The position numbers were made by a program, and so were the translations under genes. From Isurus oxyrinchus (taxonomy: Eukaryota): a stretch of DNA of 64,000 bases. Below the pieces are notes generated by a model. It was not told where the DNA came from. It saw nothing but the letters and a program-made list of their open reading frames with translations, and searched no databases. Within the stretch, counting starts at the first letter, position 1; every line of letters starts with the position of its first letter. This document shows, one piece after another, positions 15,701 through 24,659 of this stretch. The stretch lies in assembly GCA_026770705.1 (NCBI GenBank), contig JANJGN010000049.1, positions 4,030,001 through 4,094,000 on the forward strand, written 5' to 3'.

Positions 15701-16321
15701 TGCTTTCTCTGGACAAATATCGGTAACATTTGTATCTTCTGTCCCACAGATAGGGACCAATGAAAATAAAGAAGACTTGGAGTTAAACAATGCAGTTCAC
15801 AACCACAGGACATCATAAAGTGCTTTATAGGCAATGCAGATGTATTTATTTATAAATATATAATCACCATTTTATTGCAAGGAAAGACGACCGTGAATTT
15901 ACACATAGCAACATTCAACAAAGTGCACTGTGATAAATCATCCGATAAGCTGATTTTGGGATCTTGGCTGAAGGAGAAATATTGGCCTTCATCTGCGAAA
16001 TAATTCCATGGGAGCGTTTACGATCATCTGAGAGGAACTGGACACAGAGCACATGCTTTTTTTTTTCTTGGCAATGTAAAGGTTCGCCCTGAATCAACTT
16101 AAAACTAGACCTGCTTTGGAGAGAGAGTATCTGATTCTAAAGGATAAATAGACAATCTAAAAAGATACATTTGTGGAACACGGAATATTAATGGTTAATA
16201 ATTCTTTATACAGCTGGCCCCAGACAGGAAAAGAGAGGAGGAGCCAGGCTGTTAACTTGGGGAGGAGAGTGACTCCCATTCTCCTGCTCTCTCTCTCTCT
16301 CTCTTATTTGACTCTTGCCGG

Positions 16322-16329
16322 TATAAATA
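16322..16329 (+). promoter_or_regulatory. TATA box of the IgH V promoter
   Basis: TATAAATA about 100 bp upstream of the leader ATG; no ATGCAAAT octamer seen nearby, consistent with elasmobranch IgH promoters. Confidence 0.7.
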
Positions 16330-16420
16330 GCAGGATGGTTCAGCGCCAGATTCACAAATCGCAGGTATTGCTACGACTGACAGTCACGCTCCCAAGTCAG
16401 TTATACCCAAAGACTGAAGG

Positions 16421-16466
16421 ATGGGATTTGCGCTGTGCCTTTGCTTCTTATTGGCTTGTTTCACCT
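16421..16466 (+). pseudogene. IgH leader exon (MGFALCLCFLLACFT)
   Basis: ATG, hydrophobic signal peptide, phase-1 donor T|GTGAGT. Confidence 0.9.
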
Positions 16467-16597
16467 GTGAGTATTCCTGACTGTAAAGTGATACAACAGA
16501 AGTCTGCTTCTTGTCTGACATTGCTTTGGTTTTTTTTTTTCCGTTCACTGATTTGATTCTTTTCTAATGTAATTACATTTTTTCCATTCGGTAACAG

Positions 16598-16890
16598 ATG
16601 TCCAATCCGCCATCGTGCTGACCCAGCCGGCTTCAGAGACCGCTAAGCCGGGACAATCTCGCAAACTGTCCTGTTCAGTGAGCGGGTTCAGTCTGGACAG
16701 CCACTGGGTTAAACAAGTTCCTGGGAAAGGGCTGGAGTGGCTCCCTGCTTACAGAAAAACCTGGATACCACGTATTACGCGCCAGGAGTCAAAGGTCGAA
16801 TAATCCCATCAAGAACTTCGTCCACAATTTACATTGAGATCAAAAATCTGAGACCCGAAGACACCGTGAGGTATTACTGTGCAAAAAACT
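16598..16890 (+). pseudogene. IGHV exon with frameshift in CDR2; IgW-like framework
   Basis: Acceptor aacag; [48 protein letters not shown], frame change in the A-run 16755-16759, then [42 protein letters not shown]. Confidence 0.95.
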
Positions 16891-16929
16891 CACAGCGACC
16901 TGAACAAGCCCAGAGCTCGTCCAGAAACT
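16891..16929 (+). promoter_or_regulatory. V 23-RSS (CACAGCG-23-CCAGAAACT)
   Basis: Heptamer directly after the V end, 23-bp spacer, nonamer 6/9 to consensus. Confidence 0.88.
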
Positions 16930-17285
16930 GCAGAAGAATAATTACAGTGAATCATAGGTCAGTACTAGCTCAAAATAGGTTAAGAGATGTGGTTGAACCT
17001 AGATTGAAAAGTTATGTTTTCCAAAGCAATAAAGTGGCGAAGAATAAAATCAAAATGTTGACTAACTCTGTATATTAAAGAGCATAGCTGCGGGTTAGAA
17101 TGTGCACAACTGACGACTAGGAGCCAAATGGAAATATTTTTAAAAATTATTATGTGAACGGGGATAATTTTAGCCCAAAGTTCTGCTCCTGAGTAAAATT
17201 CTTGGATGAATTGTAATCAAAATCTGCAAATCTTCTGCTGACTGAAAGGTTTTATTTCTTACAGCAACAATCAGTGAGTGAGAGC

Positions 17286-17364
17286 AGTATCTGTGCTGGC
17301 TCGTGTCACTGTGGTACTATGGGGATCACGGTGCTGTGTATAGTGAACTCCTCAAACAAATACT
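17286..17364 (+). other. IGHD1 (coding 17314-17326, GTACTATGGGGAT) with 5' 12-RSS and 3' 22-RSS
   Basis: AGTATCTGT-12-CACTGTG / CACGGTG-22-ACAAATACT. Confidence 0.9.
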
Positions 17365-17680: not shown

Positions 17681-17747
17681 AATTTCTAACATGATGCCTC
17701 TCACAGTGATACTGAATGGCACAGCCGTTACTGTTAATGCAAAAACC
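17681..17747 (+). other. IGHD2 (coding 17709-17719, ATACTGAATGG) with 12/12 RSS
   Basis: AATTTCTAA (weak)-12-CACAGTG / CACAGCC-12-GCAAAAACC. Confidence 0.85.
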
Positions 17748-18068: not shown

Positions 18069-18155
18069 GGTTATTGTGTGACCCAGATCAGCGAATGTAA
18101 CACTGTGGCTATCTTGACTACTGGGGACAAGGAAACATGGTGACGGTGACTGCAG
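18069..18155 (+). other. 23-RSS and IGHJ (coding 18108-18155, YLDYWGQGNMVTVTA)
   Basis: GGTTATTGT-23-CACTGTG; WGxG motif; donor G|GTAAG. Confidence 0.95.
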
Positions 18156-21908: not shown

Positions 21909-22540
21909 GGCGTGAGTGCTCCGAATTAGGTATGTAAAATTAAATACCTCAATTCCTCCAATGAAGTAGCAGATCGTTAATTTAACGTACATTTCATTCT
22001 CCGCCGATGCTGCCAGACCTGCTGAGTTTTTCCAGGTAATTCTGTTTTTGTTCTGCCTCTATAATAGTTCGTCAAATGTCCTTAGGGCAGTTGTAATCAG
22101 GTTGTGCATTGAATTAAGCTAAATTCATATTTTTCCAGCTTTCATTCCCACCGTAGTTTGCATTAGACAAGGAGTAAGGTACCATACTGTCCACTTAAGT
22201 TGCACAATTTATTTCCAGATTCGATCATATCACAGAAGGTAACGTTACAGTCACTTCCTTTAACTGTCCTGAAATTAAACTTTAGATCAGATCAATCTGA
22301 TTCAAATATTATCTCTTACTGAAAATGTTTTATCATCTTCCCTTCATCAAAAACTTGGCTTTTTTTAGAATGAAATGTACGTTAAATTAATGATCTGCTA
22401 CTTCATTGGAGGAATTGAGGTATTTAATTTTACATACCTAATTCGGAGCACTCACGCCGATGCTGCCCGACCTGCTGAGTTTTTCCAGGTAATTCTGTTT
22501 TTGTTTTGGATTTCCAGCATCTGCAGTTTTCTTTGTTTTT
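21909..22540. repeat. 92-bp inverted duplication (21909-22000 / 22367-22458), each arm followed by a Penelope terminus fragment
   Basis: Arms are reverse complements with 1 mismatch; cgccgatgctgcc.gacctgctgagtttttccaggtaattctg follows both. Confidence 0.88.
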
Positions 22541-22709: not shown

Positions 22710-23444
22710 TGTATCTATTCATGTATCCATTTTTCCATCTATCCATGCAANNNNNNNNNNNNNNNNNNNNNNNNNNNNNNNNNNNNNNNNNNNNNNNNNN
22801 NNNNNNNNNNNNNNNNNNNNNNNNNNNNNNNNNNNNNNNNNNNNNNNNNNNNNNNNNNNNNNNNNNNNNNNNNNNNNNNNNNNNNNNNNNNNNNNNNNNN
22901 NNNNNNNNNNNNNNNNNNNNNNNNNNNNNNNNNNNNNNNNNNNNNNNNNNNNNNNNNNNNNNNNNNNNNNNNNNNNNNNNNNNNNNNNNNNNNNNNNNNN
23001 NNNNNNNNNNNNNNNNNNNNNNNNNNNNNNNNNNNNNNNNNNNNNNNNNNNNNNNNNNNNNNNNNNNNNNNNNNNNNNNNNNNNNNNNNNNNNNNNNNNN
23101 NNNNNNNNNNNNNNNNNNNNNNNNNNNNNNNNNNNNNNNNNNNNNNNNNNNNNNNNNNNNNNNNNNNNNNNNNNNNNNNNNNNNNNNNNCTTGTCTCTCT
23201 CTTTTTCTCTATCTCTATCGATCTATTTATCTATCTGTTTGTCTATTTATCTATCNNNNNNNNNNNNNNNNNNNNNNNNNNNNNNNNNNNNNNNNNNNNN
23301 NNNNNNNNNNNNNNNNNNNNNNNNNNNNNNNNNNNNNNNNNNNNNNNNNNNNNNNNNNNNNNNNNNNNNNNNNNNNNNNNNNNNNNNNNNNNNNNNNNNN
23401 NNNNNNNNNNNNNNNNNNNNNNNNNNNNNNNNNNNNNNNNNNNN
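22710..23444. repeat. (TCTA/TCCA)n microsatellite region with N runs (22751-23189, 23256-23444)
   Basis: tatctatc and ccatctatccat flank the N runs. Confidence 0.8.
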
Positions 23445-24217: not shown

Positions 24218-24517
24218 CGACATCGTCTCCCCCCACCCTCTACGCTCTGCTCTTCTCCTGTGAACAAGCAAACACTGCCGGCTCCGTCACCTACGGCTGT
24301 TTGGTTGCGGACTACTCCCCCGAAATCACCAGCGTTTCCTGGAAGAAAGGTCAAGAGACGATCACAGCTGGATTGAAGACTTACCCATCAATGCTGAACT
24401 AGAAGGGAACCTACACCCTGAGCAGCCAGTTAACAATCACCGAATCAGAGGTGGGAAGCAGCACAATCTACTGCGAAGTTCGACGGAGCGGGTCGGTCTG
24501 GCTGAAGGAAATGCCAG
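24218..24517 (+). pseudogene. IGHM: Cmu1 exon with in-frame TAG at 24400-24402
   Basis: [17 protein letters not shown]...[20 protein letters not shown]...[37 protein letters not shown]; 300 nt with AG/GT. Confidence 0.95.
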
Positions 24518-24659
24518 GTTCGTGTTGTGGGATGCACATGGCGGCAGTGGTGGGGCTGGGTGAAGGGGGAACGTGGTCAGAAAATGAGTTATGTTCAAAT
24601 TCTGCACCACATGGTTTAGAATGGAGTTAGAGTTTTGTGTATAGTTCAGGTGCTCATAT

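Follow-up and report, generated by a model that had tools for sequence, protein, structure and literature searches.

An IgW-type V segment in germline IgM clusters of Isurus oxyrinchus: a dead copy of a probable second shark IgM subclass

Background

The heavy-chain classes of shark immunoglobulin (Ig) are generally regarded as each possessing its own V families, and an IgW V found on a Cmu constant region is read as a sign of somatic switching.

The elasmobranch IgM minicluster contains one V, two D and one J in 2 kb (PMC2435157). In nurse shark, somatic inter-cluster switching between IgW and IgM yields an IgW-type V on Cmu and is thought to be AID-driven (Zhu 2012 and Zhang 2013, summarised in PMC4279169). 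IgNAR is held to have originated by V transfer into an IgW cluster, in work that also treats NAR-TCR and TAILV (PMC12227049, PMC4279169). The excerpts searched (PMC2191167, PMC12227049, PMC5192425, PMC4279169, PMC2435157, PMC8692893; the primary shark VH family papers lay outside this search) contained no report of a germline IgM family with an IgW-type V.

The window analysed here is a stretch of 64,000 nucleotides of Isurus oxyrinchus DNA, in which an earlier note had recognized an IgW-type V within a germline IgM cluster. We put at roughly 0.75 the probability of the following reading: one ancient germline recombination set an IgW-type leader and V before IgM-type D1, D2, J and Cmu, the second shark IgM subclass so formed was amplified to about 47 copies in this genome, and the window contains a dead one among them. 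The clusters of this family are chimeric in anatomy and strictly paired with one Cmu subtype; their intact paralogs are under antibody-like selection and are represented by rearranged, spliced RNA contigs.

Results

Anatomy of the window copy

The window contains a single Ig cluster, in which the leader, framework and V motifs quoted in the earlier note were read directly, with the leader ATG at 16421, the V exon at 16598-16890 and the V-RSS at 16891-16929. Its parts are as follows.

16165..16420, + strand: promoter and 5' UTR; TATA-like box at 16322-16328; start approximate, from paralog alignments
16421..16466, + strand: leader exon; IgW-like peptide, intact donor; RNA contigs of paralogs splice leader to V
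16598..16890, + strand: VH exon of IgW type; a pseudogene that has lost 9 nt after 16701 and 1 nt near 16762
16891..16929, + strand: V-RSS; 23-nt spacer; heptamer that of ordinary IgM clusters; first base of the nonamer damaged
16930..17261, no strand: V-D1 spacer; homology detected neither to IgM clusters nor to IgW clusters
17286..17364, + strand: D1 with its RSSs; D1 at 17314-17326; RSS spacers of 12 and 22 nt; mu-type
17681..17747, + strand: D2 with its RSSs; D2 at 17709-17719; 12/12 RSS; 5' nonamer damaged; mu-type
18069..18155, + strand: J with its RSS; 23-nt RSS; coding part 18108-18155; mu-type
24218..24517, + strand: CH1 of the Cmu subtype peculiar to the family, 'type A'; interrupted by a stop at 24400
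25423..25734, + strand: Cmu CH2; open
29295..29599, + strand: Cmu CH3; 1-nt deletion near 29520
30089..30480, + strand: Cmu CH4 with the secretory tail; stop codons at 30301 and 30472
35540..35667, + strand: mu TM1 (transmembrane exon); open
35808..35816, + strand: mu TM2 exon

Relative to an intact paralog, the V exon has lost 9 nt from CDR1 (after 16701) and 1 nt from CDR2 (near 16762), and it is because of these deletions that the V motifs are spread over two frames. Since stop codons interrupt CH1, CH4 and the tail, and CH3 is frameshifted, the window copy is dead; as a correction to the earlier note, the whole cluster, V and C alike, is a pseudogene. In the J-C intron, a 400-bp piece (22053-22450) is inverted relative to all three paralogs compared, and two N stretches occur further on (22751-23189 and 23256-23444).

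In its layout the locus is an IgM minicluster: V, D1, D2 and J lie within about 2 kb, their signals follow the order 23, 12/22, 12/12, 23, and four Cmu exons, a secretory tail and TM exons come after them. This order (23-12/22-12/12-23) and the same set of constant exons are shared with nurse shark Groups 1-5 and the horn shark main family, and the DNA from D through J into the intron is homologous to that of ordinary clusters. Unlike in those miniclusters, leader and V fall in the IgW clade, the promoter and Cmu subtype are the family's own, and the contigs that carry the family clusters are not those of the ordinary IgM clusters. With the IgW cluster (horn shark W26, P83907; five in this genome, on contig C88) the family shares leader type, short FR3 and V clade (65-67%). 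The IgW clusters, however, have three D segments here and IgW constant exons, neither of which the locus possesses; non-coding homology is absent and the family's CDR2 is one residue longer.

The V segment is of IgW type

By alignment, FR3 of the family V matches that of IgW V in length and falls two residues short of that of ordinary IgM V, just as the earlier note had proposed from the motifs, while CDR2 is one residue longer than in either IgW or ordinary IgM V of this genome. An intact paralog V is 65-67% identical to the five IgW V of the genome and 42-53% to ordinary IgM V, and the best long database matches of an intact family V are IgW chains; in the PDB, the matches listed comprised mammalian antibody fragments only. 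The suggestion that the start of FR1 is IgM-like finds little to recommend it, the first 120 nt of V scoring 100 against IgW and 66 against IgM.

The phylogeny that the earlier note had called for was built as three V trees, of 58, 33 and 35 rows and 97-114 columns; the reduced 33-row tree left out 25 of the 58 rows (long branches, near copies and partial rows), and the IgW labels of database rows other than W26 were assigned here from C regions or V likeness. Family V and the Scyliorhinus torazame sequence P0017 form one clade in all three (support 99/97, 98/95 and 100/99). Its sister is the grouping of the genome's IgW V with horn shark W26 (96/89, 98/88, 97/93), to which the V of a third family, one without C exons, also belongs. 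Ordinary IgM V branch apart (93/100, 100/100, 100/99), so that nesting within the ordinary chondrichthyan IgM VH clade is not seen and the IgW assignment of leader and V stands. When the leader is included (35-row tree), the family nests above the IgW V of bamboo shark, sevengill and batoids. In AU tests with the leader, grouping of the family with IgM was rejected (p 0.032), as was IgW without the family (p 0.030), and union of the family with the third, C-less family was not rejected (p 0.32); with the leader omitted, family plus IgM was borderline (p 0.050). Over some 100 columns, these results agree with one another and reject an IgM origin for V only modestly (p 0.03-0.05).

From D1 onwards the cluster is mu, and the transition lies at or just before the V-D1 spacer

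D1 (12/22), D2 (12/12), J (23), CH1-CH4, tail and TM are all mu, as the earlier note had read them: the D and J flanks match mu and not IgW, and the C exons are 70-85% identical to horn shark and catshark mu exons, whereas identity to IgW C exons does not exceed 40%. Between 17262 and about 18480, a stretch that takes in D1, D2, J and the beginning of the intron, the window is co-linear, at 66-68%, with all nine ordinary IgM clusters tested, and with none of the five IgW clusters outside J, whereas the DNA of the window's V exon is 70% identical to IgW V. Shuffle-controlled segment scores (mu/IgW) were 176/24 for the D1-D2 spacer, 156/24 for D2-J and 46/107 for V 120-260. The breakpoint scan against IgM and IgW clusters that the earlier note had proposed thus passes from IgW-like V to mu by 17262, with the transition at or just before 16930-17261.

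Non-coding homology to the five present IgW clusters was absent in the promoter (z 1.2), leader plus intron (z 1.3) and V-D1 spacer (z -0.6), for which reason the IgW donor and the breakpoint are not directly visible. The leader and intron score slightly higher against IgM (z 3.6) than against IgW (z 1.3). The V-D1 spacer and promoter match neither the IgW nor the IgM clusters of this genome; the promoter, unalignable to both, is homologous to that of the C-less sister V family. The V heptamer is identical to that of eight of nine ordinary IgM clusters and differs from that of all five IgW clusters, a weak hint that a crossover may have ended in the conserved 3' end of V.

A large family with intact members

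A protein search of the 4.98 Gb genome, followed down to unrelated matches, found 47 family V copies, 36 open and 11 broken, and a DNA search gave 40 scored matches at 89-100%; copy counts are probably inflated by haplotig duplicates, the safe minimum being the 14 on one contig. All 47 lie 6.6-11.6 kb upstream of a type-A Cmu, paired by coordinates. By the same approach, 60 of 66 ordinary IgM V are paired with type-B Cmu (no C was found for the other six) and all five IgW V with IgW C. The gene lists came from searches with a horn shark IgM V, a sevengill IgW CH1 and the family's own CH1, which gave 50 type-A matches (84-100% to the family CH1) and 62 type-B matches (63-74%); three type-A and two type-B C exons had no V that could be found. 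Where paralog DNA was examined (20 of 46), every copy carried a type-A CH1. The join is in the germline, as the earlier note had proposed: V, D and J are unrearranged, D and J are mu, and all 47 copies are paired to type-A Cmu.

The functional paralogs that the earlier note had suggested looking for exist: besides the 36 open V, at least two clusters (C131:1.28 Mb and C38:9.12 Mb) show no interruption in any of the exons found, V through TM. The subclass has functional intact members, and the window copy is a dead one. Intact family V are 95% alike, and intact paralogs retain the FR2 and J interface residues, together with the CH1 cysteine. In 23 distinct intact V, pN/pS is 0.21 in frameworks and 1.37 in CDRs, against 0.32 and 1.17 in ordinary IgM V; the frameworks are under purifying selection and the CDRs are not, as in ordinary IgM V.

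Some members depart from this plan. Three clusters (L022, L030, L124) have a single D and a J about 400 nt nearer V. Eight copies (L013, L025, L026; contigs C132, C336, C342, C358, C544) apparently have a frameshifted V in common, which suggests either recent pseudogene amplification or haplotig duplicates. Type-A Cmu without an upstream V was seen at C100:1668538 (L162) and C26:5907549 (L160-L161), the latter an older decayed remnant of about 82%. The family CH1 (window 24218-25734) lacks two near-C-terminal cysteines present in ordinary type-B CH1, as does that of the catshark member. Interspersed among family IgM clusters are five-domain C arrays on C38 (for example at 7.62 and 13.92 Mb; L163-L166), C42 and C100, which we take to be IgNAR (46-63% to IgW C3-C6). 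Such interspersion is unlike four other genomes, in which isotypes are reported not to intermingle (PMC12227049).

RNA contigs

Family V occurs in 20 of 24 runs listed, mostly from two organisms (A and B). Four of the five runs guessed to be RNA were aligned, X20 (share 0.09) being left out. The sequences are assembled Logan contigs, not single transcripts, and carry no expression level. Within these bounds, leader-V splices occur in X15 and X16, a V-D1 joint with added bases in X16, and type-A CH1-CH2 splices in all four runs. One V-J joint each was found in X17 and X18 (organism B), both in frame by length and stop-free by hand reading, and one 536-nt X18 contig, also of organism B, covers V and type-A CH1 (V-J-CH1mu). 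The contigs of organism A show leader-V and CH1-CH2 splices, with no contig bridging V to Cmu among the matches listed. At the level of contigs, paralogs of the window copy thus show in-frame rearrangement and splicing to Cmu, most clearly in organism B, in line with the W-V/Cmu transcripts that the earlier note had proposed to look for. A J-CH1 joint of depth 358 in X16 was dropped as evidence for the family, the contig being ordinary IgM.

A third V family without constant exons

The third family consists of ten copies (C26, C140, C151, C152, C210; L116-L120; for example G000:C26:38727861, + strand), each with an IgW-clade V, one D with 12/12 signals and a mu-like J with an intact splice donor; no C exon was found within 20-25 kb. 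Its promoter and leader are about 60% identical to those of the 47-copy family over 325-400 nt, and its D2-J flanks are mu-type. The shared promoter and leader, taken with these flanks, therefore make it likely that both families derive from one chimeric ancestor. On the opposite strand, at a distance of about 22-27 kb, there are T-cell-receptor-like V segments. The four RNA runs gave no cover of this family, their contigs only cross-matching other V and J, a result that speaks neither for nor against its expression.

Two further V, L126 (C26:29934149) and L127 (C242:584701), are divergent members of the IgM clade, 63-66% identical to horn shark IgM V, for which no neighbouring D, J or C was found; they may represent either TCR-associated Ig V or the monotypic lineage of horn shark.

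Discussion

Age and direction of the exchange

In S. torazame, the models scyTo_0014239 (V, 82%) and scyTo_0014240 (Cmu, 84%) are consecutive, a linkage that rests on gene numbers and equal contig size (159,436), not on the sequence of the locus. The catshark Cmu groups with the family in the CH2 tree (96/95) and weakly in the CH1 tree (71/80). Horn shark, sawshark and a further gene of a catshark combine a type-A-like CH1 with an ordinary V, for which reason the W-type V would be the derived state. Because the subclass appears to be shared with a catshark, the event looks ancient and single, not local, and we infer that an IgM cluster captured an IgW V once, ahead of the split from catsharks, and was amplified afterwards.

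Such a capture would have been one ancient germline recombination that set the V of a galeomorph IgW cluster onto an IgM cluster, by an unequal crossover or a long gene conversion that stopped somewhere from the 3' end of V to D1 (about 16860-17262). The chimeric cluster would then have multiplied to about 47 copies, the swap itself predating the split from catsharks. In intact members, RAG would join V, D1, D2 and J within the cluster, and the product would probably be an ordinary, light-chain-paired IgM with an IgW-shaped binding site.

Alternative explanations

That the join is an assembly chimera or a one-off local rearrangement between V and C would suit the N stretches at 22751-23189 and 23256-23444, which the earlier note had pointed to, but the chance of it is negligible. 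The window is 86-92% co-linear with all three intact paralogs on both sides of the N stretches, the transition falls 5 kb before them, and 20 of 20 paralogs have the same CH1 downstream. Misassembly is ruled out by this co-linearity together with the V-Cmu pairing in 47 of 47 copies, and a one-off hybrid by the 47 copies themselves. A retained ancestral state, or transfer in the reverse direction, is better founded yet still unlikely: the W-type V would be close to the ancestral VH, and galeomorph IgW would later have taken its V from an old IgM lineage that had kept it. In the trees, VH of bony-fish type indeed lies near IgW V while ordinary shark IgM V form a long derived branch; a non-coding IgW trace flanking V is absent, and the C-less family is a second lineage with W-type V on mu-type D-J. 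Against this, the family's position inside IgW V, with leaders included, follows the shark phylogeny (95/92, 97/93), its D-J-intron DNA can still be aligned to ordinary IgM clusters, and its close Cmu relatives have ordinary V.

Capture of an IgW V is compatible with a further reading, to which we lend somewhat less than even weight, namely that the family is the monotypic second VH family of horn shark (clone 1113) together with a divergent VH family reported to exist in nurse shark, only the expansion being new. The second horn shark family is said to share about 60% nucleotide identity with the main one, which fits the 65-67% over the alignable part of V, but one horn shark clone reportedly has a different D/RSS order. 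No clone 1113-like sequence was returned by the protein or representative searches, and this genome offers other candidates in the divergent IgM-type L126 and L127 (63-66% to horn shark IgM V). Horn shark clusters are reported to include a second VH family that is monotypic (PMC2191167). There, as here, a divergent V family stands beside a single-family main IgM V (Hinds-Frey 1993, clone 1113), but as a single copy compared with about 47. For nurse shark, IgM V are reported to be more than 75% identical among themselves (PMC2435157), which also counts against this identification.

Relation to somatic switching and to IgNAR

The earlier note had called the locus a germline counterpart of somatic IgM/IgW switching. 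The germline W-V/Cmu join holds; the likeness is loose, because switching moves a finished VDJ and here only the leader and V are foreign, with D, J and intron mu. Whereas in switching a rearranged VDJ moves to the C of another cluster within a B cell, the V, D1, D2 and J of this locus are unrearranged, germline-fixed and inherited, with D and J of mu type. With the origin of IgNAR the family has in common the making of a new receptor gene by germline V exchange between linked receptor loci; it differs in that the exchange was between two conventional heavy-chain classes, with light-chain pairing residues kept.

Conclusions

A second IgM subclass with an IgW-type V is well supported, extends a known kind of gene exchange among shark receptor loci, and is a larger finding than the earlier reading. 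To a wider proposition we give even odds: that a second, so far undescribed IgM subclass exists in some galeomorph sharks, making up about 47 of the 107 V-linked Cmu clusters here, and arose when an IgM cluster took up an IgW V in the germline before catsharks branched off, the ten-copy V-D-J family without C near TCR genes coming from the same ancestor. If so, many of the IgW-V/Cmu transcripts of these species would be encoded as such in the germline and would not point to somatic switching. Given so large a germline IgW-V/Cmu family, switching studies in new shark species must therefore check the germline first. The family would also show that, in the course of evolution, V genes pass from one class to another, as has been proposed for IgNAR, and would provide a natural test of the IgW-type binding site, with the same type of V on two constant regions in one animal.
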